Source of the DNA: Minisyncoccia bacterium
GTDB lineage: Bacteria > Patescibacteriota > Minisyncoccia > Phycocordibacterales > UBA9973
Direction: 5' to 3'
Assembly (NCBI GenBank): GCA_038244685.1
Contig: JBBRTD010000001.1
Span: 259,569 to 323,568, forward strand
DNA length: 64,000 nt
Below are positions 4,753 to 21,601 of this stretch, piece after piece. Each line of letters begins with the position of its first letter. Within the stretch, counting starts at the first letter, position 1. A model generated the notes under the pieces. It was not told where the DNA came from, searched no databases, and was given only the letters and a program-made list of their open reading frames with translations. The translations under genes and the position numbers were made by a program.

Positions 4753-5250
4753 ATGAAACATTTATTTGCCATCTCTGCTATCTTTTTCAGTATAATGCTA
4801 TCATTGTTCAGTTTTAATATTGCTGATGCAAGTATTACAAACAAATTAACTAAATCATTTGGAGGAAAAATTTTGATAACACCAATTCCTGGTGTTATCT
4901 GTATTGGTGTGGGACAAGCCGTATATATGAATAGTAATATAGGCGGAGCTATTAATGCAGCCAAAAGTGCAACGTCTTCAGCTACTGGTGGAGAAAAAGC
5001 TTTATCTGTATTGGGGGGTATTTATGGAATGATACCTACATATACAACAAATCCATTAAGAAAGCCTATAATAAGTAGGTTTATTCTTGGAACAGAGAAA
5101 TTAATTCCTGACTTTAAAACATGTAAGATCGGTAATATTCCAATACCCGTACTTAGAACAACAAGCAATTACGGTATTTCATCTCCAACCCCCACCCCAA
5201 ATACGAATACAGGAATAATTAGTGGCCAATCAGTTATTAATAATGAATAA
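4753..5250 (+). CDS. Small secreted or membrane protein with a signal peptide and Gly-rich hydrophobic segments; possible pilin-like subunit.
   Basis: N-terminal signal peptide (MKHLFAISAIFFSIMLSLFSFNIADA). TGnTATAAT box at 4737..4744, 8 nt before the ATG. Confidence 0.5.
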   Translation: MKHLFAISAIFFSIMLSLFSFNIADASITNKLTKSFGGKILITPIPGVICIGVGQAVYMNSNIGGAINAAKSATSSATGGEKALSVLGGIYGMIPTYTTNPLRKPIISRFILGTEKLIPDFKTCKIGNIPIPVLRTTSNYGISSPTPTPNTNTGIISGQSVINNE

Positions 5251-6106
5251 ATATCTTCCTAGTAAACAATTTATTGCTCGACTAATAATAATACTAATTG
5301 TTGTTATTTTTATTTGGGGTTTATATCAAATTCCTAAATTATTTAGAAAAAATAAAAATACATCTCAAAACCCAACAACACTACTTGTTAAAGATTTAAT
5401 TCAAAAAGATAGTAATGATAATGGTATTGCTGATTGGGAAGAGGGATTATGGGGTCTTAATCCGGAGAAAGATGGAGCTTCAAATAAAGAATTTATTTTG
5501 GCTAAACGTTTAGCATTAGCAAAAGATAATGCCTCAGCTGTTGATGGAGGAGGAGCAGATTCATCAGAAAATGACGCACTTTCAAGAGAAGTGTTTGCTC
5601 TTATCTTATCCCTTCAACAGTCAGGCAGTTTAAATTCTGAATCAATGAAATCAATTTCTGAATCTGTCGGTCAAAATATTGTTCCCAATGACATCGCAGA
5701 CATTTACACAAAAAATATGGTTAAGATTGGGGGAACTGAAGCCGAATATTATATAGCCTTTAAAAATCTAGTAGAAAAATACCAAGACAAAGGTATGGGT
5801 AGCGAACTTAGTTTTGTGGCTCAAGGGCTCGAAAATAAAGACCCCCAAGCTTTATATGCAGCCAAAACAGTTGCTGTTTTTTATAGAGAGTTTGGCCAAG
5901 CATTAATAAAAACACCAAGTCCTCTGACTCTTGCTTCAACCAATCTTAGCCTTGCTAATAATTATGAAAAGGTAGCGCAAACAATAGAAGGATTTTCAAA
6001 CGTATTAAATGACCAGATAACAGGAATGAGATCTTTGATTAATTATAAAAAATATAGCGATAAGATAGTTGCTGACATAACAAAACTTTCAGACAATTTA
6101 AAATAA
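5243..6106 (+). CDS. Membrane-anchored hypothetical protein with an N-terminal transmembrane helix. The start is moved to the internal ATG that overlaps the upstream stop codon.
   Basis: ATGAATAA start/stop overlap at 5243..5250. Hydrophobic segment LIIILIVVIFIWGLY. Confidence 0.5.
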   Translation: MNKYLPSKQFIARLIIILIVVIFIWGLYQIPKLFRKNKNTSQNPTTLLVKDLIQKDSNDNGIADWEEGLWGLNPEKDGASNKEFILAKRLALAKDNASAVDGGGADSSENDALSREVFALILSLQQSGSLNSESMKSISESVGQNIVPNDIADIYTKNMVKIGGTEAEYYIAFKNLVEKYQDKGMGSELSFVAQGLENKDPQALYAAKTVAVFYREFGQALIKTPSPLTLASTNLSLANNYEKVAQTIEGFSNVLNDQITGMRSLINYKKYSDKIVADITKLSDNLK

Positions 6107-6132
6107 GTGATATAATAAAATAGTAAATTAAT

Positions 6133-8295
6133 ATGAAAGACCCAATCATAAAAAGAACAATCTCAGGAATTATTATATTAGCATTTTTCTCTTCGTCTAT
6201 ATTAATACCATCGAATGCCGTTGCTGCAACCAAGGGTTTAAATTGGAATAATCCAAACCAGGGGAATGCTTTTAAATTAGACGCTTCGACTCTTTTGAAT
6301 GCTAATAATTTAATGGCCGTTGTTGGATGTACTGGTATTGTAGATACAGCAACAGATGCCGCGATGAGATTGGTCAGTAAGGTTACCACAAAAGTATTAA
6401 ATAAATTAATTGGGGGGGGAGAGGTTTCTGTAACTGATTCTCAATTAGCTTCACAACAAAAAATTAGTGACAAAAGACAAGCCTGTTTTGATGGACTTGC
6501 ATACGCTCTTGCAAAACAACAATTAGTCAGCATGACAAAATCAACTATGAATTGGGTTAATAGTGGATTTAACGGCGACCCAATGTATGTCAGAGACATA
6601 AATTCACTAACAAATAGTATTGAGGGTAAAATATTAGAAAAAGAAGTTAATTTGTTTAAAAATTCTCCAAATGGATCTGGAGATTACCCTTATGGTAGAA
6701 ACTTTGCTCTATCTCAGATAAGTTCTTTTAGACTTGGACAAAATCCAAACAACGCTCTCAAACAAAATCTTTCAAATTATTTATCAGGGGATACAGGTAG
6801 TGGTAGATATGTAGAAAGCTATACAAACAATTTCTCAATGGGTGGGTGGAATGGATGGTTAGCCTTTACTCAGATGCCACAGAATAATCCTCTTGGTTTC
6901 GACATGATTGCCAGTCAAAAACTTGCCGACAGTCAAAAAAAAGAAGTAACAAATACAAAAACGGAAGTAGCTAGAAATGGTGGAATGCTTGATCAAAAGA
7001 AATGTGTTCTCTGGAATATGATAGATGATGCAACTGGTGAATACATAATGGAGGATGTCTACAATGAAGATGGAGTTACCTCTGTAATATCAACAACCAC
7101 TAACCCTATGCCAGAAGACGAATGTGTTAATTATGAGACAGTCACTCCAGGTAGTTTAATAAAAGATAAAGTTTCAAAGTATCTTAATTCAGGAGAAACA
7201 CAACTTGAACTTGCCGATTCTTTAAATGAAGTTTTATATTCTATCTTTGGTAACCTTATATCAAAATTCCAACAAAATGGTCTTTCAAGTCTGTCATCAA
7301 ATACAACTGATTTTTCTAATGTCTCTGATGGTATTGGTTCAAATAAAATAGTTGATGCAAATGGAAAATATATTACGAGTGGAAATGATGGAGGAGTTGA
7401 CCCTAGTTCAAACTTTGATATTACTTCCGATCTAGGAAGCGGTAGTACTACATGTTTAAATGATCAACCAAATGGAATAGGTGCGGATAAAAATACTTGC
7501 GGAATAATTGAAACCCAACAAAAATATATCGCAACTGTTAAAAACCTATTTCCTCCGCTTGAAAAAGTTATGCTAAAGCTAGGGGAGCTTGATTATTGTA
7601 TACCAGGGCCAAATCCAAATTGGCAAGAAAACTCTACAAATGCTGCAAATGCTTACACAAATTGGCTAAATAGTATTGCTGTGGTTGGTTCTTCGTCTGG
7701 ATTTTTAGGCTCAAGTAATTACACAATTACCATACCTGACATTAATTCAGCAGCTTCTCAAAATTATATAAATAGTATAGATAATAACCTTACTTATTGG
7801 AAAGATCTTCAAAGTAGCTGGTATTTCAATTTAGGATTTGGAGATCTAACTGCTGGAGTTTCATCAAGCGCCCAAGATAGAATTACCAATAGAGTTGAGC
7901 CAAGAATGGCCGAATTAGAAACAGCCGAAGCTGAATATAAAGTTACAGCAGATGCCCGTTATGGTTTTAAGAGTTCTATGCAAACTGAATTTCTGAACAA
8001 TGGAACAGCTACTATGACTGAAAATTCAGACTATTTAGCAATGGCGCAAACAGGATTAAACATTACAAAAGATATATCTTCTTATGCCGAAAGTATTGGT
8101 GATATGACAACAACTTACCAGAGTCGAATAATAGAAACAACAGCCAATATATACAAACTCAAAAAATTAAAAGAGAAGATAGATATCATTGTTACCAGGG
8201 CTCAAAAACTTAGAGATGAAACAAGAGCTTCAAGTGGAGCACCTGCTATAACTAGGGTATGTCTTGCAAATGAAAAAACAACAATTACTCAATAA
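6133..8295 (+). CDS. Large secreted hypothetical protein (720 aa) with a signal peptide.
   Basis: Signal-peptide-like N-terminus. TGATATAAT box at 6109..6116. No recognisable enzymatic motif. Confidence 0.6.
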   Translation: MKDPIIKRTISGIIILAFFSSSILIPSNAVAATKGLNWNNPNQGNAFKLDASTLLNANNLMAVVGCTGIVDTATDAAMRLVSKVTTKVLNKLIGGGEVSVTDSQLASQQKISDKRQACFDGLAYALAKQQLVSMTKSTMNWVNSGFNGDPMYVRDINSLTNSIEGKILEKEVNLFKNSPNGSGDYPYGRNFALSQISSFRLGQNPNNALKQNLSNYLSGDTGSGRYVESYTNNFSMGGWNGWLAFTQMPQNNPLGFDMIASQKLADSQKKEVTNTKTEVARNGGMLDQKKCVLWNMIDDATGEYIMEDVYNEDGVTSVISTTTNPMPEDECVNYETVTPGSLIKDKVSKYLNSGETQLELADSLNEVLYSIFGNLISKFQQNGLSSLSSNTTDFSNVSDGIGSNKIVDANGKYITSGNDGGVDPSSNFDITSDLGSGSTTCLNDQPNGIGADKNTCGIIETQQKYIATVKNLFPPLEKVMLKLGELDYCIPGPNPNWQENSTNAANAYTNWLNSIAVVGSSSGFLGSSNYTITIPDINSAASQNYINSIDNNLTYWKDLQSSWYFNLGFGDLTAGVSSSAQDRITNRVEPRMAELETAEAEYKVTADARYGFKSSMQTEFLNNGTATMTENSDYLAMAQTGLNITKDISSYAESIGDMTTTYQSRIIETTANIYKLKKLKEKIDIIVTRAQKLRDETRASSGAPAITRVCLANEKTTITQ

Positions 8296-8300: not shown

Positions 8301-9794
8301 ATGGAAAATAATAACCCTAAAAAAAGTAAAGCATTCATAATAACTTTTATAATAATATTGATACTTTTAATATTAGGTTATTATCTATTCAGTAATCGAG
8401 ATCAAATATTTGGAACTAAGGGAACTTTATCTGTAAGTAAAATATTTTCTCCACTCTTAGGTTCTTCTAAGAAAACTGATGTAAAAGTTATTGATGAAAA
8501 CAAAGATGGAGTAAATGTTACCCCTACGGTTGAAACAAAAATAACAGGGGTGATTATAACTGATGCCGATGGTAATAAAATTATAGTAGGCGAAGCAGGA
8601 GAAATAATTAAAAAAGGAGATGTGTTATATATCTCAGGATTTAATGCAAGTAAAAATCCAATTATAATGAAAGCTATCGCAAGCGACAAAGCGAAGTCTC
8701 TTGTTTTCGGAGTGGCTGGCCAAGATATAAATAAAGGGGAAACAGGAAATGTAATAATAAGTGGAGTTTTAAATGGAGTTCCTACTAATAAAAAAGAGGT
8801 AACACTATGGGCCATTAATAATTCACTATATTTAAGCGATAAGGTTTACGGCGCAATGACAAAAAATTCACCAGTTGCCCCATCTTCTAAAGTTTTAGTT
8901 GGTAGCGTTCTAAAGATTGATAAACTTAACGGATCTATTCAAATAGGAAACTTAGCAAGTAATTTAAATATAAACAGTACCCAAGTTACAAATTTAAATA
9001 AATTAAATGGAGAACTATTAAATGGAGCGACAACCGACATGAGAGACTATTGGAGTTCAGTCTTTGGTGTAAATTCATATACTGGTGGTGTCCCTGATTT
9101 TTCATATACTAATCCTCCATTTAATCCAATCGCTGTTCCAATTAACCCAAATAATCCAACAAACCCAAACACACCAACGAATCCAAATATTAATCCAAAT
9201 AATATTTGCCAAAACAGTGCAACAAATTATCCTATTTGTACGACTATTAATGGCAAATGTATTAATGGAGCGACAAACCCAGGGGTCTGTACAAATTCTA
9301 TACAAAATAAATGTACAAATGGTGCAACTAATTATCCAACGTGTACCACAAAGGGAGGTGTTTGCGTTAATCGTGCTACAAATCCCGACCTATGTACAAT
9401 TACCCCAGGTGAAATAACAGACACTGGAACAATTACAGAAAGTATGTGTCCTGTTGATGATCCGCTTTCTAATTACTTTACAGATCAAGACAAAATTGAT
9501 TTAGAAAATTATCTTCGACAGTTCTATCTTATCGCTCCAACCATAAAAACAGGGGATTCTATTAAGATTGCCGAGAATGAAATACTTGACAATAACTCTT
9601 TCATTGGCCAGCTTGATCAATTAATTAAAGACTGCAATGAGCAGAAAAGCAAAGCTTCATATACAGGTCCCCAAGAAATAATTAGTAATCCTTATTACCA
9701 AGGCCCTGTTGATAGTAATGCATATATCAGTAGTCAGCCAGTAAAATCAACACAACCATTTAGCATATTAGAAAAATTGTTAAATATTTGGTAA
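8301..9794 (+). CDS. Membrane-anchored extracellular protein with a Pro/Asn-rich linker and about five Cys-bracketed C-x-NGATN-x(2-3)-C-T repeats.
   Basis: N-terminal transmembrane helix. NPNNPTNPNTPTNPNINPNN linker. Repeats CQNSATNYPICTT, CINGATNPGVCTN, CTNGATNYPTCTT and CVNRATNPDLCT at nt 9205..9400. Confidence 0.6.
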   Translation: MENNNPKKSKAFIITFIIILILLILGYYLFSNRDQIFGTKGTLSVSKIFSPLLGSSKKTDVKVIDENKDGVNVTPTVETKITGVIITDADGNKIIVGEAGEIIKKGDVLYISGFNASKNPIIMKAIASDKAKSLVFGVAGQDINKGETGNVIISGVLNGVPTNKKEVTLWAINNSLYLSDKVYGAMTKNSPVAPSSKVLVGSVLKIDKLNGSIQIGNLASNLNINSTQVTNLNKLNGELLNGATTDMRDYWSSVFGVNSYTGGVPDFSYTNPPFNPIAVPINPNNPTNPNTPTNPNINPNNICQNSATNYPICTTINGKCINGATNPGVCTNSIQNKCTNGATNYPTCTTKGGVCVNRATNPDLCTITPGEITDTGTITESMCPVDDPLSNYFTDQDKIDLENYLRQFYLIAPTIKTGDSIKIAENEILDNNSFIGQLDQLIKDCNEQKSKASYTGPQEIISNPYYQGPVDSNAYISSQPVKSTQPFSILEKLLNIW

Positions 9795-9857: not shown

Positions 9858-12800
9858 GTGAAAAAAGTTTTATCTTATATATTAATATCTTTTGTAGTAT
9901 TCGTGAATCTCTTCGCGCCTATTGGGGTTGCATTTGATAAAAACAACATAGAAATTAATAAAAGTGTTGTTAGCGCTGCTGCTTATAATGTAAAACTTCA
10001 AGTTGAAGTCTTAACAAATAGCTCATACTTGGAAGTAAAAGCAAAAGTACTCGATAGTTCTAGTTTATTATCCTTTACTCCAGAGACAGGCTCGCTTTCT
10101 ACCTTCTTTGTTGAAGCTATTCTTACAAACAGTGATGGAACTTCTAATAATGATGCAAAGAAAGGGTTAATGTCCCAAGATAAAAATGGCATAGTCAGTT
10201 TTAATTTTGAAGGATTAAAGCCAGACACCTCATATAATGTTTTAGTAAATTTAATTGAATCAATAAACGGTTCAAATGGCTCAACCTTTGGGTCAGTTAG
10301 TTCATCAACCGATAATATCATCAAATTCGAGGAAGTTAAGGGAGTAAAAACTTTAGTAAAAGAACAAATCTCATCTGTTTCTCAGTCGGTTATTAGTTTA
10401 GATGCCGAAAAAAAACAGCCCGTTTCTTCTAAGAAATTACCAGCCTGTAGTATGAATCCTCTTTCTTTAAGTGAAGGAACTTTTGTTGGTTGTATTTCTC
10501 AGGCCTTCTATTACGTACTATTTGTACCAACTTCTTATTTATTTGCTCTAGCTGGTACATTTTTTGACTACACTTTTGCTTACTCTGTTCAAGACTCTTC
10601 TTATCGATCAGCCTTCGTTGTTCAGGGATGGGGACTTGTCCGCGATTTCTGTAATATTTTCTTTATTTTCGTAATGCTTTATATAGCTATCGGAACCATA
10701 CTAAGTCTTCATAATTTTAAAACAAAAGAAACAATTATTAATGTTGTTATCATTGGTCTTTTTATAAACTTTAGTCTTTTTGCTACACAGGTAATTATCG
10801 ATGCATCAAATATTACGGCCCGAGTATTTTATAATTCTGATTCAATAAAAATAACAGAAAAGGGGGCCAATGGTGTGACAGAAGCTACCACTAAGGTTGG
10901 AGATGGGGGAATAATACCACTATCAGCAGCTTTGGTTAATAAAGTTAATCCTCAAAATTTGATCACTCGTTCTGGCGAGATAAATAATATTCCAGACAAA
11001 GGAGGAGTTACTTCAGGATCAACAGGAGAAGATAATGCCAATATGGATGCTGGAACATTTATATTAATCATTGTCATGGCCTCCGCCATAAATATAATTG
11101 GCCTTAGTGTCTTTATGACTGTCGGATTACTCTTTGTTGCTCGTGTGATAGGTCTTTGGCTTGCTATGATTATGGCACCACTCGCATTCTTTACTTATAT
11201 ACTACCTCAACTTGAAGGCATTAAAATGATTGGTTGGAAAAATTGGTGGCCGGATACTCTTAAGCTTGCATTCTTAGCACCTGTATTTATTTTCTTCATG
11301 TATTTAATTCTGAAGTTTTTACAGATGGATTTAATTTCCGATCCAATGAATAAAACTATAGCCGCCGACGGATTAGGATTCTTTGTTGCCACAATTATAC
11401 CTTTCGCATTTATCATGATTTTAATGATGAAAGCAAAAAAAATAGCCGCTGACATGGCAGGTGAGATGGGAACCGCTGTCACAAAGATAGGGGCAATTGC
11501 TGGTGGTCTTGCTCTTGGTGCCGCATCAGGAGGTGCCGCTGTAGTAATGAGAGGTACCGTTGGAAGACTTGGTAGTTCTATTGCAAACTCAGAGAGACTA
11601 AAGAGTGCTGAATCAAAGGGTGTCTTTGGTGCTAAATTATTAAGAAACTTCGGAAAGACAGCCGGTAGTGGAAGTATGGATATTCGTGGAGTAAAAATTG
11701 CAGGTAAAGGTCTAGCTGATACAGGATTAAAGAATCTAGGTAAAGCAAAAGAGGGTGGATTCACAAAACTAAGAGCAGATAAAACAGCAGAAAGACAAAA
11801 GAGAGCAAAAGAATTAGAACTTGGAGAAGATTCAAAACTAAGTCTAGATCTAAAAGCAAAAGAAACACAACTCAAAGATCTTCAAAATGATAATGCTCAT
11901 GATCTTGAAAGAATTGAAGCAACTATAACAACAAAGAGACAAGCTTCTGAAGACGCAAACAGACTCTTATTAACAGATCCTAAAAATAATGTATTAATTG
12001 AATCTGCAAAAAGAGCAGCTAAAGAATTAGAAGATATAAAACAAGAAAAAACAGCAATAAGAACTGGTGGTCCAAAGAAAGATCATCACGGGAATATAAT
12101 TAAAAATCCAGATGGAAGTGTAGTTTACAATACAACAAATGGTAAAATTAGTATGACAGAAGTAACTGGATCCCAAAAAGCATCCACAGAGGCACAAAAG
12201 ATGTTGTCTGAACAACAAAAGAAAGTTAATGATGTTAAAACCTCGGCTGCTTCTAATCCAGATGTTGTCAGCGCTACAAACAAAAAGGCAAAAGCTGATT
12301 CTGATTTAATAAACGCTAACAATGCTCTTCTAACAGCTAAATCAAAACCAGGATTTATAATAGGTTCTGACGCAGCTCTTGTTTCTGCTGTTAATGATGC
12401 AAAAGCTGCTGCTGCTGAAGCAGAAAAGGAACTCATAAAATCAACAGATGAAGTTAAAAACCAAATAATCGCAGCTGAAGCAGAATTAAAAACAATTGAA
12501 AAGATTGCAACAGATGCTTCAGTTAAAGCCGCAGCAGACATTGCTGCATCAGCAAATGGAACAGGTAAATCAATGAATGAATTACAATTTAATGAAATTC
12601 CAGATGCTCATAACGAAGTGGCTCATGAAAATAATGCTCGTAAAAGAAATTATGCTACATACTTATCAAGTAACTCAAATAAAGTTATAAACTTCATTCA
12701 AAGTGGGGGACAGCATAGCTCCCTTGGTGCTGATGAAGCTGCATATAGAATAAGAATGAATGCAAAAATAGAGAGTAGCGGAGGAGGACATGCAGCACCA

Positions 12801-12890
12801 GCAGCAGCAGCTCATGCAGCACCTAAACCAGCACCAGCAGCCGCTCATGCAGCACCAGCAGCCGCAGCCGGAGGGGGAGGACATCATTAA
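9858..12890 (+). CDS. VirB6/TrbL-like polytopic membrane protein of a type IV secretion system. It has an N-terminal secreted domain and a long C-terminal coiled-coil plus Ala/His/Pro low-complexity tail. GTG start.
   Basis: Signal peptide, then about 190 aa of soluble sequence, then 6-8 hydrophobic helices over aa 200-520. Sits two genes upstream of VirB3-like and VirB4 genes. Tail ...HAAPAAAAHAAPKPAPAAAHAAPAAAAGGGGHH. TATAAT at 9843..9848, 9 nt before the GTG. Confidence 0.5.
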   Translation: MKKVLSYILISFVVFVNLFAPIGVAFDKNNIEINKSVVSAAAYNVKLQVEVLTNSSYLEVKAKVLDSSSLLSFTPETGSLSTFFVEAILTNSDGTSNNDAKKGLMSQDKNGIVSFNFEGLKPDTSYNVLVNLIESINGSNGSTFGSVSSSTDNIIKFEEVKGVKTLVKEQISSVSQSVISLDAEKKQPVSSKKLPACSMNPLSLSEGTFVGCISQAFYYVLFVPTSYLFALAGTFFDYTFAYSVQDSSYRSAFVVQGWGLVRDFCNIFFIFVMLYIAIGTILSLHNFKTKETIINVVIIGLFINFSLFATQVIIDASNITARVFYNSDSIKITEKGANGVTEATTKVGDGGIIPLSAALVNKVNPQNLITRSGEINNIPDKGGVTSGSTGEDNANMDAGTFILIIVMASAINIIGLSVFMTVGLLFVARVIGLWLAMIMAPLAFFTYILPQLEGIKMIGWKNWWPDTLKLAFLAPVFIFFMYLILKFLQMDLISDPMNKTIAADGLGFFVATIIPFAFIMILMMKAKKIAADMAGEMGTAVTKIGAIAGGLALGAASGGAAVVMRGTVGRLGSSIANSERLKSAESKGVFGAKLLRNFGKTAGSGSMDIRGVKIAGKGLADTGLKNLGKAKEGGFTKLRADKTAERQKRAKELELGEDSKLSLDLKAKETQLKDLQNDNAHDLERIEATITTKRQASEDANRLLLTDPKNNVLIESAKRAAKELEDIKQEKTAIRTGGPKKDHHGNIIKNPDGSVVYNTTNGKISMTEVTGSQKASTEAQKMLSEQQKKVNDVKTSAASNPDVVSATNKKAKADSDLINANNALLTAKSKPGFIIGSDAALVSAVNDAKAAAAEAEKELIKSTDEVKNQIIAAEAELKTIEKIATDASVKAAADIAASANGTGKSMNELQFNEIPDAHNEVAHENNARKRNYATYLSSNSNKVINFIQSGGQHSSLGADEAAYRIRMNAKIESSGGGHAAPAAAAHAAPKPAPAAAHAAPAAAAGGGGHH

Positions 12891-13307: not shown

Positions 13308-14558
13308 ATGGACAATACAACAGACTTATTACAATTTAAGATATCAAAAGCCAAAGACGAACTACCAGAAATAAGTAGGGTTGTTGTTGATTCTGTAAAT
13401 TGGAAAGAAATTATTCTAGGAATGAATAATAAATATAACTCTGAACAATTAGAATATTTAGACATTGAAACAGAATTACTTTTATGTGGACTTATCAACA
13501 CAGAAAGTTATCCCAAAGAGTTAGAAACTCGAATGAAAATATCTAAAAATGAAGTTAATCTATTGTTAAATGAATTAGATAGACTCATCTTCAAGAAAAT
13601 GCAGGAAGAAGTTGAAGACAAAATAAATAAAGAAGAAAAGATTTTATACAGCAAGAAGCCACTTATTCTTGATCCTCATTTTGTGAATATGCCCAAAGAT
13701 ATCCAAGAGGCGATTGCTGATTCAGACTGGAAAGAGAAGATATACAATCTAGCTGATAAATATAAAATTAATATTGAACAGACAGGAATACTTGAAGATA
13801 TTACTACAAAAATCATGGCCGGTTTAATTACTCCCAGCCAATATGAAGACGAAGTAAGGTCTAAAATAATTCTTCCAGAGGGTAAAACAAGAGATCTTAT
13901 TTTTGAAGTTAATGAGAGTGTCTTAGTAAAAATTAAAGAGATTCTTAAAAGCAAAAAGGAAGAGGTAAAGGAAGCCTTAGTTCCACTTCCTCCATATGTA
14001 GCAAAAAAAGAAGATGCAGTACCACTTCCACCACCTGCTTATAAAAAAGAAATTGTAATAGAAAAAGTAGAGGCTTCAAAAGAAATAATTGTTAATAAAG
14101 AAGTTAATAATTTAATAAGTATCAACACAGAAAGAGAATCACTAGAATCGGAAATTAGTAATTTAACTAAATCAATTAAGCCAAGCGTAGGGAATGATAT
14201 ATATAAAGAGCATGGGATAGAAATTCTTTCAGAGGATGAAGTTCCTAGCCCTAAAGCTCCAATAATTAAAGAAATAGAAAAAGTTGAATACAGAGAGGAG
14301 ATACCAACAATAGAGAAAGTAGAAACTATTACCCCCGTAACAAATAATGTTAAAAGTGATCCGGTTGAGATACCAGAAGTTAAGGTTAACAATTTTGATC
14401 AATCAAATATCATAGCCAATAAATTATTCAACAAAACAGCAAGTCAAAATATCGTCACTGATTATTCTATACCCAAGATGAATACCCAAGCTCAGCCGTT
14501 TATACCACAAGGTGGTGCTCCAACAAAACCTCATGATCCTTATCACGAAGCTATCTAA
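13308..14558 (+). CDS. Acidic Glu/Lys-rich hypothetical protein with two copies of the shared roughly 55-aa motif and a Pro-rich C-terminal half.
   Basis: Repeated motif seen in the translation. No transmembrane segment. Confidence 0.55.
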   Translation: MDNTTDLLQFKISKAKDELPEISRVVVDSVNWKEIILGMNNKYNSEQLEYLDIETELLLCGLINTESYPKELETRMKISKNEVNLLLNELDRLIFKKMQEEVEDKINKEEKILYSKKPLILDPHFVNMPKDIQEAIADSDWKEKIYNLADKYKINIEQTGILEDITTKIMAGLITPSQYEDEVRSKIILPEGKTRDLIFEVNESVLVKIKEILKSKKEEVKEALVPLPPYVAKKEDAVPLPPPAYKKEIVIEKVEASKEIIVNKEVNNLISINTERESLESEISNLTKSIKPSVGNDIYKEHGIEILSEDEVPSPKAPIIKEIEKVEYREEIPTIEKVETITPVTNNVKSDPVEIPEVKVNNFDQSNIIANKLFNKTASQNIVTDYSIPKMNTQAQPFIPQGGAPTKPHDPYHEAI

Positions 14559-14577: not shown

Positions 14578-14988
14578 ATGCAATTTAAAGTCCCACAATT
14601 TATAGACATAGAAGATAAGATTTTCGGACCTTTCACTTTTCACCAATTTGCTTACTTGATTGGTGGGGGAGGAATAGTCTTTGTTATATATAAAATACTT
14701 GGCTTTTGGTTAGGACTTATATTTATACTACCAATGGCAGGTCTTACTATTAGTCTTGTTTTTGTAAAAATAAACGGTAAACCTTTTGTTTATTATTTAG
14801 AAGCTGGTTTTAATTATTTTATAAATAGTAAGCTTTATATCTGGAAACAAAGATTAGTAAAAAAAGGTGACGCACAAGAAGAAGATATTCAAATTACATC
14901 AACCGTGTCAAAAGTGCCAATGGTTTCGGACAGTAAACTTAAGGATTTATCGTGGAGTCTTGATGTTCAAGACAGAAATAATCAATAA
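14578..14988 (+). CDS. Small two-helix membrane protein, VirB3-like by size, topology and position directly upstream of VirB4.
   Basis: 136 aa, two hydrophobic helices (LIGGGGIVFVIYKILGFWLGLIFILPMAGLTISLVFV). Gene order fits VirB3-VirB4. Confidence 0.45.
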   Translation: MQFKVPQFIDIEDKIFGPFTFHQFAYLIGGGGIVFVIYKILGFWLGLIFILPMAGLTISLVFVKINGKPFVYYLEAGFNYFINSKLYIWKQRLVKKGDAQEEDIQITSTVSKVPMVSDSKLKDLSWSLDVQDRNNQ

Positions 14989-15053: not shown

Positions 15054-15707
15054 ATGGCAATTGACGCAAGAGCAGCACAAGAGTTTGTACCAATAAAAGA
15101 GGTTCGTAATGGAATCGTCGTACTTAAAGACGGGGGACTTAGAGCAATCTTAATTGCTTCTTCCATTAATCTTTCCCTTAAATCTTCTGACGAACAAATT
15201 GCTATTATAAATCAATTTCAATCATTCCTAAATGGTTTAGATTTTCCGACGCAGATAGTAATACAATCAAGACGCTTAGATATCAGACCTTATTTATTAA
15301 TGTTAGAAAACCGCCTAAAAGAACAAACTGAGCCATTACTAAAGATACAGACTAAAGAGTACATCGAATTTATAAGATCTTTTACTGATGAAGTAAATAT
15401 CATGACGAAAACTTTCTTTGTTGTTGTTCCTTATAGTGCCAGTATTATAAAATCAAAAAATGGAATGATAGATAGTCTTTTAGGTGGAGGCGCTCCTAAA
15501 AAACAAGTTGAGGATACCAAAAAAGCCATGGATTTAGCTTCTTTTGAAGAAAAACGTAGCCAACTTGAGCAGAGAACAAACGTTATTATAAGCGGACTAA
15601 GTGGAATAGGAATAAGAAGTAGTCAGCTTAAAACTGATGAAGTTGTAGAACTTTTTTATAAGACATTCAATCCTGGAGATATTAGTCAGGGTATTAAATT
15701 ACAATAA
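15054..15707 (+). CDS. virB4: VirB4/TrbE/CagE N-terminal domain encoded as a separate ORF. Split gene or frameshift.
   Basis: The pattern FVPIKEVRNGIVVLKDGGLRAILIASSINLSLKSSDEQ...QIVIQSRRLDI matches the VirB4 N-terminal region. It ends 5 nt before the ATPase ORF in a different frame. Confidence 0.55.
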   Translation: MAIDARAAQEFVPIKEVRNGIVVLKDGGLRAILIASSINLSLKSSDEQIAIINQFQSFLNGLDFPTQIVIQSRRLDIRPYLLMLENRLKEQTEPLLKIQTKEYIEFIRSFTDEVNIMTKTFFVVVPYSASIIKSKNGMIDSLLGGGAPKKQVEDTKKAMDLASFEEKRSQLEQRTNVIISGLSGIGIRSSQLKTDEVVELFYKTFNPGDISQGIKLQ

Positions 15708-15712
15708 TTTTT

Positions 15713-17551
15713 ATGGGAATATTTTCATCATTATTTAAAAAAAGCGGGGGAAACGTTGCAGACCAAAGAAGTGCTGTCATGCCTGTTTTACCTACCGAAA
15801 TATACAAAGCCGCAACTCTTGAACTTCAAGACGTTATCGCTCCATCAGCTCTTCAGATAACACCTAGAGCCATAAACTTAGGGGATAAGATAGCTAGAAC
15901 TTTCTTCGTTATATCATACCCTAGATATCTTACAGATAATTGGTTTTCTCCAATTGTGAATTTAGATAAAGTTTTCGACGTTTCTATTTTTATTCACCCC
16001 ATTGAAACAGCCGATGTTTTAAGATCTTTCCAGAAAAAAGTAGCTGAGGTTCAGAGTCAGATATCTATTCGTGAATCAAAAGGTCTTGTTCGTGACCCAA
16101 TGTTAGACACTGCCTACCAAGACCTAGAAGGTCTTCGTGATAACTTAATGCAAGCCCAAGAAAAAATGTTTGACGTTGGATTATATATTACGGTATATGC
16201 TGATAATGAAAATGATTTATTTAAAATAGAAAGTGAAGTTAAATCATTACTTGATTCTAAGCTTGTTTACCTAAAGCCAGCCTTATTCCAACAAAATGAA
16301 GGGTTTAAAAGTGTTATTCCACTTGGCATGGACATACTTGGTATTCACCAAAAGTTAAATACTGAACCACTTTCAAGTATTTTTCCATTCGTTTCTTTTG
16401 ACTTAACATCAGATAAGGGTATTTTATATGGAGTAAATAGACACAATTCAAGTCTTATTATTTTCGATAGATTCTCTCTTCCAAACTATAATTCTATAAC
16501 CTTCGCAACGGCAGGAGCTGGAAAATCATATGCCACAAAACTTGAAATCATAAGAACGTTAATGTTCGATACAGAAGTAATAGTTATTGACCCTGAACGT
16601 GAGTATGAATATTTAGCTGAAGCTATTGGTGGTAGATATTTTAATATATCTCTTTCTTCTGATCACCATATAAATCCTTTTGATTTACCAATTCCAAGCA
16701 AAGATGAAACAGCTGCTGATGTTTTGCGTTCAAATACAATAAACCTGGTTGGATTATTTAGAATAATGCTAGGAGGTCTTACTCCAGAAGAGGATTCAAT
16801 AATAGACAGAGCAATTACTGAGACTTATGCTTTGAAAGATATTACAGCTGACTCAAATTTTGCCAATATTGAACCACCACTTCTAACAGACTTTGAAGTT
16901 GTATTGGCTGGTATGGAAGGAAGTAATTCTTTAATACAACGTTTAACTAAATATACACATGGATCTTGGTCTTCTTTTATAAACAGACCCTCCAATGTCG
17001 ACATTAACCGTAAATTCGTAGTTTTCTCTGTCCGAGATATGGAAGACGAACTAAAACCAGTAGCCATGTATATAGTTACTCACTTTATATGGAATGCGGT
17101 TCGTAAAAATCTAAAAAAGAGACTTCTGGTTGTTGATGAGGCTTGGTGGATGATGAAATCAGAAGATACTGCCTCTTTCTTGTATTCTATTGCTAAAAGA
17201 GGACGTAAATACTATTTAGGGCTTGCTACCATTACTCAGGACGTAGGAGACTTTATGAAAAGCCCATATGGTATTCCAATAGTAACAAACTCATCTATTC
17301 AGCTTTTGCTTAAACAATCTCCCGCAACCATAGATGTCCTCCAAAAAACCTTTAATTTAACTGATGAGGAAAAATATCTACTCCTTGAGGCAAATGTTGG
17401 AGAGGGAATATTCTTTGCAGGACTAAAGCACGTGGCAGTTAAGACAATTGCTTCATATACAGAAGATCAAATCATTACATCTGATCCATCACAAATCCTT
17501 GCAATCAAGAAGGCCAAGGATGAATTAGATACTTCCATTAATCCACAATAG
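15713..17551 (+). CDS. virB4: VirB4-family type IV secretion ATPase, C-terminal NTPase part.
   Basis: Walker A FATAGAGKSYATK and Walker B LLVVDEAWWMM. Architecture typical of the TraC/VirB4/AAA_10 family. Confidence 0.85.
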   Translation: MGIFSSLFKKSGGNVADQRSAVMPVLPTEIYKAATLELQDVIAPSALQITPRAINLGDKIARTFFVISYPRYLTDNWFSPIVNLDKVFDVSIFIHPIETADVLRSFQKKVAEVQSQISIRESKGLVRDPMLDTAYQDLEGLRDNLMQAQEKMFDVGLYITVYADNENDLFKIESEVKSLLDSKLVYLKPALFQQNEGFKSVIPLGMDILGIHQKLNTEPLSSIFPFVSFDLTSDKGILYGVNRHNSSLIIFDRFSLPNYNSITFATAGAGKSYATKLEIIRTLMFDTEVIVIDPEREYEYLAEAIGGRYFNISLSSDHHINPFDLPIPSKDETAADVLRSNTINLVGLFRIMLGGLTPEEDSIIDRAITETYALKDITADSNFANIEPPLLTDFEVVLAGMEGSNSLIQRLTKYTHGSWSSFINRPSNVDINRKFVVFSVRDMEDELKPVAMYIVTHFIWNAVRKNLKKRLLVVDEAWWMMKSEDTASFLYSIAKRGRKYYLGLATITQDVGDFMKSPYGIPIVTNSSIQLLLKQSPATIDVLQKTFNLTDEEKYLLLEANVGEGIFFAGLKHVAVKTIASYTEDQIITSDPSQILAIKKAKDELDTSINPQ

Positions 17552-17560: not shown

Positions 17561-17598
17561 CAACTGATTAATTTAAAAAATTAATCAGTTGTTTCGTT
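17561..17598 (+). terminator. Rho-independent terminator after VirB4.
   Basis: Inverted repeat caactgattaa / ttaatcagttg followed by a T-rich tract. Confidence 0.7.
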
Positions 17599-17623
17599 GT
17601 CTAATCTATCGTATAATATAGAA

Positions 17624-18622
17624 GTGAAATATTCTCTTAAAAAAATCTTGTCCGTTACTATATTCGTTTTATTAAGTATTTTTTTTGTATCGAAATATTC
17701 TAGTGCAGCAATTGAAATTCCTATTCAGGATAGTGATATTAGCGTAGAAACAATACCAGAAAACCCAGAGCCCTACCAAGATGTAACAATAAAGATTAGT
17801 AGTTATGCAACCGATTTAAATAAAGCTAAGATTGATTGGCAAAATAATTCGAAACTTATTTTATCCGGAATTGGCAAAACAAGCTATTCCTTTAAAGCAC
17901 TTGGCCCAAATAGTGCCTTAATTTTTAATATTGCAATAACACCAGAAGGTTCTATAAATAAAATAAACAAACAAGTCGCAATAAAACCATCAGAAATTGA
18001 TCTTTTATGGGAAGCGGTAGATGGATATACTCCACTTTTTTATAAAGGTAAGTCTTTTGTATCAGCCGAAGGTATAGTCAAAGTTGTAGGTATTCCAAAT
18101 ACAAATACCATTAAATCAGGGAAGGGTAGTATGTCTTACTCTTGGAAATCTAAAGATAGTAATGTTGCAGGAGCTTCTGGTTACAACAAAGACTCTTATG
18201 TTTTTAAAAATAATGAACTAAATAGCCAAGAAGAAATTACAGTTACGGCTTCTTCGGTTGATGGACAATATGATGCTACTAAAAAAATAATAATTCCCAT
18301 AATTTCACCTAAAATTATTTTTTATAAAAAATCTCCCGCTGATGGTATTTTATACAACAAGGCTTTGATAGATGACACCTTTGTTGAAGAGAATGAAATT
18401 ACAGTAGTAGCAGAACCATACTTTTTGGCATTAAAAAACAAAGAAAATGCTTTTACTTATAATTGGAAAATAAACGGTGAGGGTATTACTACTCCTACAA
18501 AGAAAACAGAATTAACAATCCGACCATCTGCCCGCGGGGGATATGCCACAATAAGTATTGTCATGGAAGATTTAAAATCATTCTTCCAGAAAGTCACCGG
18601 TCAATTAAAATTAACTCTATAA
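17624..18622 (+). CDS. Secreted hypothetical protein. Start reassigned to the GTG preceding a canonical signal peptide (MKYSLKKILSVTIFVLLSIFFVSKYSSA).
   Basis: TATAAT at 17613..17618, 5 nt before the GTG. Signal peptide. The ORF-track start at 17597 is a TTG lying inside the terminator. Confidence 0.55.
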   Translation: MKYSLKKILSVTIFVLLSIFFVSKYSSAAIEIPIQDSDISVETIPENPEPYQDVTIKISSYATDLNKAKIDWQNNSKLILSGIGKTSYSFKALGPNSALIFNIAITPEGSINKINKQVAIKPSEIDLLWEAVDGYTPLFYKGKSFVSAEGIVKVVGIPNTNTIKSGKGSMSYSWKSKDSNVAGASGYNKDSYVFKNNELNSQEEITVTASSVDGQYDATKKIIIPIISPKIIFYKKSPADGILYNKALIDDTFVEENEITVVAEPYFLALKNKENAFTYNWKINGEGITTPTKKTELTIRPSARGGYATISIVMEDLKSFFQKVTGQLKLTL

Positions 18623-18626: not shown

Positions 18627-20297
18627 ATGTCTAGAAAATCATTCATTAAAATAAGTTTAACCTTTGTAATAATTTTTAGTATTTTTTCTCTATTTCTAAA
18701 AACAACAAATGCGGCGGCTAAATATTTTTATTGGTTTATGGACGGTAACAATAAAATAGAATTAGGTGACGACAAAAAAGGGACTGGTTTTGATACTAAG
18801 GCTGCATGTGAAATACTTTTAAAAACCGTTGGGGCTGGTTTAACGAAAAGTCCGTCTTGTTATACAGGAGAGTTGGCAAAAGTAACGAGTATATCTCCAG
18901 CTATTGGAAAACCAGGTGATCTTGTCACGATAAGCGGAGATGGATTTAATTTTATTAAAAGCATCTCTTTTAATGGCGTAATTGCAGAGAAAGATGGAAT
19001 TATCTCAAGCACCCAAACAAAAATAATGGTTATAGTGCCATCGGGAGCGACTACTGGTGCTGTTACAATAACTACAACATATCGTGGAATAGCCAAAACT
19101 CCGGTTTTTACAATTAATACCGCTGGTTTATCCTGGTGGTTTACAAATGAAACAAAACAAGTTGTCGGAACTAAGGGAGTTCATGGTTTTCCGGGTTTTA
19201 CAACAAAAGAACTGTGCGAAACGGCTAAAATTCCATATAAAAGTAATATAACGAGTTCAGTTAGTGAATGTTTCCAAAAAACCGATGATGATATAAATAA
19301 ATTAATTGTTGCAGAACAAGAAGCTTCAAAAATATTTACAGATGAAGTTATAAATAAAGACGAGGCTGTTTCAGTAAAACCTCAAATAAATGCAGCCGAA
19401 AATAAAACAATTTATAAAATGCTTGCGCCAATTGGAAAAATAACTTGTATGGATTCAAGTGGAAAAGATAAAAATTGTATTGGAAATAATATAGGGGACT
19501 ACTTAAATGTAATTTTTAAAATTGCGATTGGCCTCTGCGCTGCTTTAGCAGTTATCATGCTTATAATTAGCGGTATTACATATATGGGAAATGAATCAGT
19601 CTTTGGAAAAACGGAAGCTAAGAGTAAAATGTTTTCTGCTATTCTTGGTTTAATTATTGCCCTAGGCTCATATGCATTACTTAATACCATTAATCCAGAC
19701 CTAACAGGAGTAAAAGGGCTTAATGTTAGTGCGGCTGAAATTCAAATATCTTCAGATGAAACTTCGACTGGTTCATCTACATCACTATGTTTATCAAGTA
19801 ATCCACCAAATCCTGATAGTGCAACAGGCACGAATATAACACTTAGTAATGAAATGATCAATGAGTATATTCCAGCAAGAAATCAGATCGTTGGATTATC
19901 AACAGGGACAAAATTATTAATAACTGCACAAACAGCAGTTGAGGGTTTTAAAAAGGGAACTAAGTCATACAGGACAAATAATCCTGGTAATATTGGAAAT
20001 ACTGATAATGGTGCGACGGTACCATATGCTTCGCTTGTGGACGGAATAAAAAAGCAACAAAGTATTATAACAAATGTGGCAACTAATAATGCAAAAAGTT
20101 ATAAAATTGGAGGAAAATCAATATGCGCCCTAGGAAGTGAAGTTTATAATGGATCTTTATATCAGTATTTAAGAATATATGCCACAGGCGCAAGAGTTGA
20201 TAATAATTATTTAAATGCTATTATTGGATATTTTAAATCTAATGGAAAAACAATAACAGCAAGAACAACAATTGCAGAGATATATGCTATAAATTAA
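18627..20297 (+). CDS. Secreted protein with an IPT/TIG-like domain, an internal pair of hydrophobic helices, and a C-terminal domain of unknown function.
   Basis: Signal peptide. IPT-like SISPAIGKPGDLVTISGDGF. Helix pair IAIGLCAALAVIMLIISGITY...ILGLIIALGSYALL. Confidence 0.6.
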   Translation: MSRKSFIKISLTFVIIFSIFSLFLKTTNAAAKYFYWFMDGNNKIELGDDKKGTGFDTKAACEILLKTVGAGLTKSPSCYTGELAKVTSISPAIGKPGDLVTISGDGFNFIKSISFNGVIAEKDGIISSTQTKIMVIVPSGATTGAVTITTTYRGIAKTPVFTINTAGLSWWFTNETKQVVGTKGVHGFPGFTTKELCETAKIPYKSNITSSVSECFQKTDDDINKLIVAEQEASKIFTDEVINKDEAVSVKPQINAAENKTIYKMLAPIGKITCMDSSGKDKNCIGNNIGDYLNVIFKIAIGLCAALAVIMLIISGITYMGNESVFGKTEAKSKMFSAILGLIIALGSYALLNTINPDLTGVKGLNVSAAEIQISSDETSTGSSTSLCLSSNPPNPDSATGTNITLSNEMINEYIPARNQIVGLSTGTKLLITAQTAVEGFKKGTKSYRTNNPGNIGNTDNGATVPYASLVDGIKKQQSIITNVATNNAKSYKIGGKSICALGSEVYNGSLYQYLRIYATGARVDNNYLNAIIGYFKSNGKTITARTTIAEIYAIN

Positions 20298-20302
20298 TTA
20301 AT

Positions 20303-21601
20303 ATGCCTCAAAAAACAAAAATCATTTTTATATTAGTCTTTATAAGTGTCGGAGTTATTATGCTCGGTGTGTATTTGTATAATGTCAAAAATAAAATAAA
20401 TACCGATGGAAGTAAAACAAGTCTAGCTCAGAAATTTAATCCTTTTGGAACAAGCTCAAAAAATACAGACATAAAACCCACCACAACAACAGAAACAGAA
20501 AACAATACAACAAATACCGAAGTAAAAGCTGGAAATTTATCTAATTTTACCAAAATAACAGACTTTGCAGTTGCTGGTGCTTCGTTTTTTGAAGACACGA
20601 GACCCCTTCCTCCCAAAGAGGCAGTAGAAGAAGTAGCAATAGTAGGAATCAAAAAAGCGACAAAAACCCCCGCAAAAGCAGAACCTACTTCTGAAATAGT
20701 TCCATCAATCAGATATGTAGAGAAAGCGACCGGCCATGTTTATCAAATGTATTTAGACACAAGAATAATAGGCAAGATATCAAATTCAACAATTCCAGGT
20801 GTCTATGAGACTCTTTTTGATGGCAAAGCAAGCTCAATCATCTATCGATACCCATCATCAGATAATAAATCGATTACGAGCTTCCTAGCGTCTCTTGGAG
20901 GCAAGAGTAGTAACTTCTTGAGTAATGATATTTTAGATATTAGTCTTTCTCCAGATAAAAGTAGTTTCTTTTCAATTATTAAAAATACAAAAGGAGTTAC
21001 AGGAGTTACTAAATCTTTTGATGAAACAAAAACAAATCAAGTTTTCACTTCTTCTTTCTCTGAATGGTTATCTCAATGGGTAACAACTCAAAATGTATTT
21101 TTAACAACCAAACCATCTTATATGGCAGAGGGGAGTGTCTATAGCTTAAATATTAAAAATGGAATCATCTCTAAAATTTTTGGTGGAATACCAGGGCTTA
21201 CAACTCTATCAAATAATGATGGAACCACTATATTGTATGGGGCATCATTAAATACAGGACCAGAGCTAAACATTTTTAATATAAAAGATCATACTTCTGC
21301 TGACTTAGATACTTATGGGTTACCAGAAAAATGTGTTTGGAGTATAGACAATATAAATGTTTACTGTGCTGTTCCAAATACAATAATAGGAACACAATAT
21401 CCTGACTCTTGGTATCAAGGATTAGTATCTTTTGATGATAAATTTATAAAAATAAACACCGCGACCAAAGAAATTACAACCTTGGCTAATTCCTCAAGTG
21501 AAATCCCAGTTGATGGTATTAAATTATTCTTAAGTAAAGCTGAAAATAAACTATTCTTCTTAAATAAAAAGGATTACAGCTTGTGGAGTTTAGACCTTTA
21601 A
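20303..21601 (+). CDS. Membrane-anchored hypothetical protein with an N-terminal transmembrane helix and a beta-rich extracellular part.
   Basis: N-terminal hydrophobic helix. No catalytic motif recognised. Confidence 0.55.
   Translation: MPQKTKIIFILVFISVGVIMLGVYLYNVKNKINTDGSKTSLAQKFNPFGTSSKNTDIKPTTTTETENNTTNTEVKAGNLSNFTKITDFAVAGASFFEDTRPLPPKEAVEEVAIVGIKKATKTPAKAEPTSEIVPSIRYVEKATGHVYQMYLDTRIIGKISNSTIPGVYETLFDGKASSIIYRYPSSDNKSITSFLASLGGKSSNFLSNDILDISLSPDKSSFFSIIKNTKGVTGVTKSFDETKTNQVFTSSFSEWLSQWVTTQNVFLTTKPSYMAEGSVYSLNIKNGIISKIFGGIPGLTTLSNNDGTTILYGASLNTGPELNIFNIKDHTSADLDTYGLPEKCVWSIDNINVYCAVPNTIIGTQYPDSWYQGLVSFDDKFIKINTATKEITTLANSSSEIPVDGIKLFLSKAENKLFFLNKKDYSLWSLDL

Follow-up and report, generated by a model that had tools for sequence, protein, structure and literature searches.

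A stretch of 64,000 nucleotides from a Minisyncoccia bacterium (assembly GCA_038244685.1, contig JBBRTD010000001.1, positions 259,569 to 323,568; hereafter the window) carries, close to dnaA, a tightly packed run of mostly exported or membrane-bound proteins with a few recognisable parts of a type IV secretion system (T4SS). Does this locus belong to a conjugative element or to a resident apparatus of the chromosome, and what might it serve for? The run comprises 12 unbroken plus-strand open reading frames (ORFs) at 5222-21601, named g2 to g13, with intergenic gaps of -29 to 65 nt; g1 denotes an ORF overlapping the cluster start. About fifteen genes had been counted here in a preliminary description made from the sequence alone. 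The co-directional run was real, and the number was 12, or 13 with g1, which was left out of the system because it occurred in only one of 80 related loci. These loci, used throughout for comparison, are the best 80 of at least 591 loci with a g10 relative found by scanning GTDB with each species represented by a single genome. The cluster is most probably a chromosomal, non-conjugative T4SS of the Patescibacteria lineage, derived from the MPF_FATA conjugation machinery of monoderm bacteria and located in a Paceibacteria (Nomurabacteria-like) genome beside the replication origin (oriC).

The ATPase g10 matched the NCBIfam model conju_CD1110 ("VirB4-like conjugal transfer ATPase, CD1110 family") with an E value of 1.9e-111 and 373.7 bits against a curated cut-off of 325 (profile positions 183-732), and in Pfam it matched P-loop_TraG (1.5e-24) and AAA_10. 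The remaining NCBIfam matches were to VirB4, TraC or TrbE models and, weakly, to CedB (2.3e-6, far under the cut-off), CedD and the SCO6880 family; no FtsK or VirD4 model was among the NCBIfam matches. The possibility raised beforehand that this protein is an ATPase of the FtsK or TraG coupling type was therefore removed by the CD1110 score. Walker A (ATAGAGKS, residues 265-272) and Walker B (LLVVDE, residues 471-476) motifs were intact, their key residues being invariant in all 81 family sequences. Next to the VirB4 genes, g8 was confirmed as the VirB3-like protein by a Pfam PrgI match above the cut-off (1.7e-7; 32.1 bits versus 27), along with a match to TcpE (2.5e-5) and two hydrophobic helices (residues 24-42 and 45-63). 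It was present in 75 of the 80 loci with 40-79% identity (median identity to the window, 51.4%). Two parts expected of a VirB4-based T4SS, a VirB4 ATPase with intact Walker motifs and a VirB3-like partner beside virB4, were thus found.

VirB4 had been described as one gene at 15054..17551. The assignment stood, the single gene did not: g9 ends in a TAA stop, 5 nt before g10. Three NCBIfam models matched g9, all below their curated cut-offs: (i) VirB4_plasma (VirB4 of Mycoplasma integrative and conjugative elements, N-terminal region; positions 105-233, 1.4e-10); (ii) the TrsD/TraD family (6e-8); (iii) CD1110 VirB4 (positions 2-120, 3.5e-5). A hidden Markov model (HMM) of the g9 family matched the N-terminus of the unsplit VirB4 of Clostridium perfringens (3e-6) and, in Pontibacillus, an ORF of 274 aa that is distinct from virB4 and precedes it (7.5e-38), and one g9 orthologue bears the Pfam TraC-like domain PF26593. 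Median identity of g9 to the window was 61.6% across the related loci. As g9 and g10 tile the CD1110 profile (2-120 and 183-732) and in view of the HMM matches, the two together make up one VirB4, split like TrsD-TrsE of pSK41/pGO1. In all 78 related loci with both parts, g9 ended in a stop shortly after the 217-aa match, while frame and spacer varied (mostly 0 to about 150 nt; 420-500 nt in L039, L057 and L072; 670 nt in L036). The TAA stop and the same g9 end in varying frames reveal a true two-gene arrangement, so that the TrsD-like g9 and the ATPase g10 are separate polypeptides of one VirB4 motor. Recurrence of the g9 stop in those 78 loci ruled out a pseudogene or a faulty assembly, and the nature of the stop, together with its conservation in different frames, ruled out an alternative code (UGA recoding) or a frameshift. 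In locus L036 (around 9234-9870) g8-g9 were inverted relative to g10; this inversion and the spacers of 420-500 bp elsewhere indicate that translational coupling of the two VirB4 parts is not required.

The preliminary description had listed three recognisable components, which was an undercount: apart from g9 it missed g12, left among the unknowns, in which a VirB2-like pilin hairpin and a VirB1-type hydrolase were recognised. Residues of approximately 285-355 form a two-helix hairpin that matched Pfam T4SS_pilin (3.5e-4; 21.0 bits versus a cut-off of 26.6), TrbC/VirB2 (7.9e-3) and the NCBIfam 'Mbov_0395 pilin-like conjugal transfer protein' (1.1e-5; 25 versus a cut-off of 40). Six of ten tested syntenic orthologues exceeded the Pfam T4SS_pilin cut-off, and the g12 HMM matched two annotated pilin-like genes of the Pontibacillus locus (7e-11 and 2e-5). 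The pilin core was kept in all 69 syntenic g12 orthologues (35-81% identity). Through these orthologues and the conserved core, the VirB2-like pilin (PF18895) that characterises the Patescibacteria T4SS clade is found near virB4 also in the window.

The C-terminal 170 residues of g12 had no match in Pfam, and a phmmer search of the tail against the Protein Data Bank (PDB) returned nothing. Relatives by sequence were proteins of about 200 aa, several of them with PG_binding_1, PG_binding_3 or SH3 fusions; further likenesses listed for the region were to lytic transglycosylases, g-type lysozyme and phage tail lysins. In a Foldseek search the top four matches were GH73 enzymes, none of them significant. 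Residue E439 corresponds to a Glu invariant in 55 sequences and lies at a helix end, as expected of a catalytic acid. The region of approximately 395-556 is therefore a predicted lysozyme-like (GH73-like) peptidoglycan glycosidase with E439 as the putative catalytic residue. The cluster in this way contains the VirB1-type wall hydrolase that is characteristic of the MPF_FATA class, and a single protein, g12, has both a VirB2-like and a VirB1-like part. Given the signal peptide of g12 and the positively charged loop that joins its two helices, the N-terminal immunoglobulin (Ig)/TIG part and the hydrolase would both face outward. No second copy of the pilin core or of the hydrolase tail was found in the window, and the tail proved unrelated to a PG_binding_1 protein encoded at 62751-63593.

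Tails of the g12 orthologues fell into 18 BLAST clusters, and N-terminal heads ranged from 37 to 487 aa. Domains, assigned on BLAST-cluster representatives, were distributed as follows: (i) NlpC/P60, 16 loci; (ii) VanY, eight loci; (iii) YkuD, five loci; (iv) Peptidase_M15_4, three loci; (v) SLT_2, three loci; (vi) SLT, one locus (L001, the closest relative with 94% VirB4 identity); (vii) the GH73-like fold of the window, four loci. Three further clusters of 11, three and two loci had no Pfam match. At least seven peptidoglycan-active families are thus swapped at the C-terminus of g12, with variation even between close relatives, and the N-terminal Ig-like domains vary too. In the protein database, 47 of the best 120 g12 homologues pair T4SS_pilin with VanY, SLT, SLT_2, YkuD or NlpC/P60. 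Term searches of three publications on these systems (PMC12102498, PMC10633639, PMC12857230) found no mention of a pilin-hydrolase fusion, which is no proof of novelty. The tail is modular in the manner of phage tail lysins, a pattern suggestive of action on the host. One could go further and propose that the pilin-like subunit is itself the wall-breaching tool, a fibre, if subunits polymerise, that displays enzymes tuned to the wall chemistry of the host; we hold this to be unlikely, though if it were true, domain swapping in g12 would track host range as in phage tail lysins. In any case the fusion offers a testable handle on how the symbiont crosses walls, and it may bear on host range.

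The polytopic g5 had been called VirB6/TrbL-like. Its topology was borne out, and four independent weak signals converged on this family; a direct match was lacking. Neither the whole protein nor its transmembrane (TM) core matched Pfam or NCBIfam, and a profile of 55 g5 sequences returned only low-complexity coiled-coil noise from the tail when run against PDB sequences. Precomputed matches to Pfam TrbL_3 (PF19590) were recorded for seven of the 120 g5 homologues listed, marked weak on the one checked; Pfam run on homologues carrying this annotation gave no match at E <= 1. Among 471 ORFs of four reference Gram-positive T4SS loci, the best match of the g5-family HMM was TrsL of pSK41, a TrbL-family protein (E 2.5e-4). 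An hhalign comparison of the two gave a probability of 58% (E 1e-4, 85 columns), the alignment spanning the most conserved TM segment, RVIGLWLAMILAPLAFF...WW; the same comparison with PrgH of pCF10 gave no match. An AlphaFold (AF2) model of the g5 core (pLDDT 76, pTM 0.71) had R388 TrwI/VirB6 (8rt9_F) as its top Foldseek match in the PDB (probability 0.63, E 0.5, non-significant), all others having probabilities of at most 0.11. The gene lies upstream of those for VirB3 and VirB4, with only g6 and g7 intervening, and the protein has the architecture described for 'extended VirB6' in a FEMS review of 2025 (PMC12857230), that is, five or more TM helices and large hydrophilic domains. On these weak convergent signals g5 is probably an extended VirB6/TrbL protein and remains a candidate.

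The best 80 g10 relatives, with identities of 76-94%, all came from metagenome-assembled genomes of Paceibacteria, Nomurabacteria or other Patescibacteria, including RAAC4_OD1_1. The conserved order was (uvrD-rsmA)-g2-g3-(g4)-g5-(g6-g7)-g8-g9-g10-g11-g12-g13, then jag-yidC-rnpA on the opposite strand and dnaA-dnaN; both order and slot beside dnaA recurred in about 80 species representatives with occasional local rearrangements only. Median identity to the window was 79.9% for g10, 64.7% for DnaA and 56.4% for DnaN, and g10 identity exceeded that of DnaA in 53 of 53 loci, a comparison that is biased in that the loci were picked by g10 similarity, so that g10 is somewhat inflated. Searches with Pfam and NCBIfam in the scanned ORFs of at least about 100 aa across the 64 kb revealed no relaxase, type IV coupling protein (T4CP), VirB11, VirB9/10 or integrase, and what these scans identified among the other ORFs of the window were housekeeping and type IV pilus genes only. 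The absence of such genes from the 16-kb cluster, noted in the preliminary description as an argument against a conjugative element, was thereby extended to the window as scanned. No compositional break was present either (GC content 0.31-0.38 within the cluster versus 0.26-0.36 elsewhere in the window), in line with the absence of an obvious discontinuity noted before; the sole rise (0.379, at 11-13 kb) corresponds to the Ala-rich tail of g5. Given the order in about 80 species, the conservation of g10, the even GC content and the absence of mobility genes from the scanned ORFs of the window, the locus belongs to the fixed core genome and is not a mobile element, as had been surmised. A degenerate mobile element was likewise rejected on account of the shared slot in about 80 species and the lack of an integrase, a repeat boundary or a GC shift in the window. 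Within the window, the locus is chromosomal, relaxase-free and near dnaA, dnaN, rnpA, ksgA and rpmH, as is characteristic of the Patescibacteria T4SS clade in Paceibacteria.

Table 1. Features of the cluster and its flanks (positions in the window; in the last row, positions in the related loci named).
Feature	Position	Strand	Length	Description
UvrD	1938-3869			upstream flank
RsmA	3915-4718			upstream flank
g1	4753-5250	+		small secreted protein overlapping the cluster start; N-terminal signal or anchor
g2	5222..6106	+	294 aa (public gene call: ATG 5243, 287 aa)	TM 17-35, helical ectodomain, DSNDNG...EE motif
g3	6133..8295	+	720 aa	secreted protein; conserved Cys pair, signal-like segment 9-27
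g4	8301..9794	+	497 aa	TM-anchored, TM 12-30
g5	9858..12890	+	1010 aa	VirB6/TrbL candidate; signal peptide, Ig/fibronectin type III-like ectodomain (~190 aa), about six TM helices, hydrophilic Ala/Lys/Glu-rich cytoplasmic tail (~440 aa)
g6	12899..13306	+	135 aa	cytoplasmic; one copy of a ~100-aa domain
g7	13308..14558	+	416 aa	cytoplasmic; two copies of the g6 domain, Pro/Glu/Lys-rich tail
g8	14578..14988	+		VirB3/PrgI-family two-helix membrane protein; immediately upstream of the VirB4 genes
g9	15054..15707	+	217 aa	TrsD/TraD-like, equals N-terminal domain of unsplit VirB4; separate ORF
g10	15713..17551	+	612 aa	VirB4 ATPase of MPF_FATA / CD1110 type
g11	17597..18622	+	341 aa	TM-anchored or secreted, beta-rich; hydrophobic segment 13-31
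g12	18627..20297	+	556 aa	signal peptide; Cys-containing repeats with IPT/TIG domain; pilin hairpin; predicted hydrolase domain
g13	20303..21601	+	432 aa	TM-anchored (TM 7-25), Thr-rich linker
Terminator-like hairpin	21610-21643			15-bp stem, after the last stop, between convergent g13 and jag
Jag (R3H)	21657-22124	-		downstream flank, convergent with g13
YidC	22131-22883	-		downstream flank
YidD	22907-23113	-		downstream flank
RnpA	23114-23434	-		downstream flank
RpmH	23437-23577	-		downstream flank
DnaA	23755-25113	+		DnaN next, also +
Examples of the g12 slot	L001:12954-14426; L012:3479-5203; L004:11873-13714; L007:12872-14278; L016:12844-14211; L032:12882-13979			g12 position in related loci

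The bracketing of the cluster by housekeeping genes, rsmA on the left and jag to dnaA on the right, was confirmed, with UvrD, YidD and DnaN in addition, and the hairpin that follows g13 marks the 3' end of the cluster. Stops were all ordinary, and the standard genetic code therefore applies. Promoter-like sites were no more numerous than in shuffled sequence. Hydrophobicity analysis detected an N-terminal signal or anchor in g1 to g5 and g11 to g13, two helices in g8 and about six TM helices in g5, and no hydrophobic segments in g6, g7, g9 and g10. The earlier view that all products are exported or membrane proteins save the two at 12899..14558 consequently held for most of them, the two VirB4 parts also being devoid of such segments.

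Besides the motor, g8, g12 and the probable VirB6 protein g5, the system comprises seven conserved or semi-conserved envelope and cytoplasmic proteins (g2, g3, g4, g6, g7, g11 and g13). Nothing usable was obtained for these, or for g1, in Pfam, NCBIfam and PHROGs, and none of the seven families had a match in the reference loci (pSK41, pCF10, a C. perfringens plasmid and Pontibacillus). For g2, g3, g4, g6, g7 and g11, PDB profiles likewise yielded no match, which accords with the statement that the apparatus is built largely from lineage-specific proteins. g2 occupied the same position in 35 of the 80 loci, many of which end before the upstream part. Orthologues of g3 were found in 49 loci (24-44% identity), the PDB profile search with g3 returning coiled-coil noise only. 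In the translation of g4, four tandem Cys-rich repeats (C-x-N-G-A-T-N-(Y)-P-x-C-T, about 305-365) follow a Pro/Asn-rich stretch, and matches to Phage_cement_2 and head-decoration proteins were sub-threshold only; occurring in just nine of 80 loci, g4 is an accessory, fast-evolving surface protein of patchy distribution.

The cytoplasmic proteins g6 and g7 share a domain: hhalign of g6 against two regions of g7 gave probabilities of 99.8% and 99.7%, and comparison of g7 with itself revealed an internal repeat (10-111 versus 119-222, probability 98.7%). This domain matched nothing in Pfam, NCBIfam, PHROGs or the reference T4SS loci. Both genes lie between those for the VirB6-like and the VirB3-like protein (g6 in 28, g7 in 41 of the 80 loci). 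g11, present in 76 of 80 loci, sits in the TrsF/TraF slot; its PDB profile search gave Ig-like proteins only (Hoc, decoration proteins; E >= 0.24, sub-threshold), and it possibly consists of Ig-like repeats. For the g13 family, found in 66 loci, the best 12 PDB matches were all TolB, at weak E values of 0.018-0.21, and g13 may well be a membrane-anchored TolB-like beta-propeller. No family HMM of the cluster matched TrsH or any other reference ORF of the VirB8-like type (NTF2-fold; PrgL, TraM, TraH, TcpC), a comparison at the level of sequence profiles, so that g2, g3, g11 or g13 may yet adopt a VirB8 fold.

Elsewhere in the window, a PilB-type T2SSE ATPase (32769-34475, minus strand), a pilin with an N-terminal methylation motif (47879-48424, minus strand) and PilM (52802-54424, plus strand) are encoded; by these scattered genes, the genome has a separate type IV pilus system besides the T4SS. 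Five products are apparently surface-located or secreted: an 875-aa protein with DUF11 (36548-39175), an 808-aa protein with a weak match to an SCO4651 lipoprotein (57848-60274), a 546-aa protein with an acidic double-disulfide repeat (61099-62739), a 280-aa protein with C-terminal PG_binding_1 (62751-63593) and, upstream of uvrD, a 596-aa protein without matches (103-1893). A 194-aa ORF at 44375-44959 overlaps tRNA-Lys (44408-44481) on the same strand and is probably no gene.

How might such an apparatus work? In the mechanism we propose, a g9/g10 hexamer would dock on a membrane platform formed by g8 and g5, and, powered by ATP, would extract g12 and further envelope subunits and build them into a short pilus or channel across the wall of the symbiont. 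The g12 hydrolase head would open peptidoglycan locally, both in the symbiont's own wall and, in our opinion, in that of the host, while Ig-like and propeller ectodomains of g5, g11, g12 and g13 may hold the contact. The finished structure would then be a contact-dependent conduit with the host cell. As to direction, uptake of host macromolecules or metabolites is tentatively favoured over T4CP-dependent export of effectors, because the window encodes neither a T4CP nor a relaxase, as in ComB and Ced (see below), and because such organisms depend on host-derived building blocks. An FEMS review (PMC12857230) speculates that material from the host is taken up through a conduit made of T4SS and pilus, and a 2026 preprint (10.64898/2026.06.21.733656) describes tubular structures at a parasite-host interface and host RNA acquired as food.

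Several points weigh against this reading of the locus as a host-contact T4SS. No experiment has addressed any Paceibacteria T4SS, essentiality being known only in a Saccharibacterium. A VirB8-like part was not found. The pilin scores of the window's own g12 are under the Pfam and NCBIfam cut-offs, which only orthologues pass; each VirB6 signal for g5, taken singly, is under every conventional significance threshold; and the lead of g10 over DnaA carries the selection bias mentioned above. A VirD4-like gene could lie elsewhere, as the window covers 64 kb of a 327-kb source contig and VirD4-like matches are located far from virB4 in most Patescibacteria genomes (PMC12102498).

The last point also feeds the rival explanation that survives best, namely that effectors or toxins are exported into the host with a coupling protein encoded elsewhere or with none, as in Bordetella Ptl or Brucella VirB. 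Exporters without a T4CP do exist, as these two systems demonstrate, the T4SS of Southlakia epibionticum 'may instead export proteins' according to Wang et al. (PMC10633639), and the repeat proteins g6 and g7 between VirB6 and VirB3 could be adaptors or substrates. However, a T4CP was not found in the 64-kb window, no candidate effector or immunity pair was recognised, and the distal t4cp of S. epibionticum is non-essential although its T4SS is essential (PMC12102498); we regard export as possible, if somewhat improbable. A device for adhesion or wall remodelling only, in which VirB4 assembles a fibre or scaffold without passage of a substrate, would suit the many ectodomains (Ig/TIG-like, propeller-like) and peptidoglycan enzymes among the products, the YkuD domain of some g12 orthologues, which is a cross-linking and not a lytic enzyme, and the embedding among housekeeping genes. 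Yet adhesion is already provided for by type IV pili encoded in the genome (PilB, PilM, N_methyl pilin), and a structure that does no more than anchor the cell would hardly account for the strong conservation of the VirB3, VirB4 and VirB6 translocon core, so that this explanation is distinctly doubtful. Finally, a conjugative or recently domesticated integrative element with relaxase and T4CP outside the window, for which the homology of the parts to Gram-positive conjugation genes and the relaxases of a minority of Patescibacteria (PMC12102498) could be cited, can be dismissed with near certainty in view of the identical chromosomal slot in about 80 species, the lack of an integrase, repeat boundary or GC shift in the window, a VirB4 more conserved than DnaA, and only 15 of 109 relaxases (in 103 of 3,035 genomes) being near virB4 in that survey.

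The non-conjugative T4SS proposed here was compared with known systems. ComB of Helicobacter pylori and the archaeal Ced system are chromosomal, relaxase- and T4CP-free, VirB4-dependent T4SS-like systems that import DNA. They serve as a working analogy only: no specific homology was detected beyond the P-loop (CedB 2.3e-6, far below the cut-off). In S. epibionticum, ComEC-dependent transformation is separable from the essentiality of the T4SS (PMC12857230).

Against plasmid VirB4 proteins, identity of g10 was 27-37% for the best matches. Among the nearest relatives of g9 and g10 outside the candidate phyla radiation in the plasmid collection was a locus on a megaplasmid of Pontibacillus sp. 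ALD_SL1 (NZ_CP062975.1, 351-361 kb; L083, 10489-20042), together with Streptomyces and Embleya. Like the window, it has a separate TrsD-like ORF of 274 aa, a VirB4 of 621 aa (34% identity), a PrgI-like ORF, pilin-like genes (two, of the Mbov_0395 type) and a large peptidoglycan endopeptidase (a 1050-aa DD-metalloendopeptidase), and no relaxase was present within 15 kb, the replicon being typed as non-mobilizable. The two pilin-like genes, by contrast, stand alone instead of being fused as in g12, and between the 779-aa membrane protein of the locus and g5 no similarity could be detected. The Pontibacillus cluster directly adjoins a flagellar operon in a Firmicute of normal size. The Streptomyces and Embleya matches (34-37% identity) may be similar to the Pontibacillus locus.

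The likeness to the trs region of pSK41/pGO1, the pGO1 subclass of MPF_FATA, with which the pIP501 tra operon is reportedly grouped, extends to gene order. There, too, VirB4 is split into TrsD and TrsE, with the TrsD-like ORF separate and upstream of virB4, and g8-g9-g10-g11-g12 parallels trsC-trsD-trsE-trsF-trsG (VirB3, TrsD, VirB4, membrane protein, wall hydrolase). pSK41 differs in having a relaxase, a T4CP (TrsK), a topoisomerase, a single-stranded DNA-binding protein and the VirB8-like TrsH, none of which was found here, and its pilin-like TrsB and hydrolase TrsG are products of separate small genes, whereas they are fused in g12.

The closest counterpart is the T4SS of Patescibacteria already published, including the missing relaxase and the site near dnaA; the window thus holds no new system. 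Quinonero-Coronel et al. (2025; PMC12102498) surveyed 3,035 Patescibacteria genomes and found VirB4 in 2,417, nearly all copies forming one clade inside MPF_FATA. TrsD was the commonest accessory component, usually adjoining virB4; PrgI/VirB3, VirB6 and VirB2-like pilins (PF18895) were present, VirB8 was scarce, and VirB1 homologues were tied to virB4 mainly in Paceibacteria, in which virB4 is located near dnaA, dnaN, rnpA, ksgA and rpmH. By transposon sequencing, the homologous cluster of S. epibionticum, a Saccharibacterium, was shown to be essential for epibiotic growth (Wang et al. 2023; PMC10633639); it has unusual pilins and no recognisable coupling or relaxase protein. The suggestion that the window resembles an apparatus reported for episymbiotic small-genome bacteria was borne out by these two studies. 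This T4SS, regarded as pivotal to the life that ultra-small bacteria of limited biosynthetic capacity lead on other cells, is the first shown to be essential for its own carrier, and reviews count it as one of the superfamily's most exciting recent additions. The window adds a clean, fully syntenic Paceibacteria example, annotated part by part, with a VirB4 motor that evolves more slowly than DnaA. VirB8- and VirD4-like genes of the published system were not found in it. It shares with the published clade, the S. epibionticum cluster (SEML1_0006-0019) included, a VirB4 of MPF_FATA descent, an adjoining TrsD, PrgI/VirB3 and a PF18895 pilin, likewise without a relaxase, and probably, in g5, a VirB6-like protein. 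Saccharibacteria, however, encode small pilins singly, in arrays, and their peptidase and lysozyme are products of genes of their own downstream of virB4, whereas here one pilin-like gene is fused to a predicted hydrolase and to N-terminal Ig-like domains.

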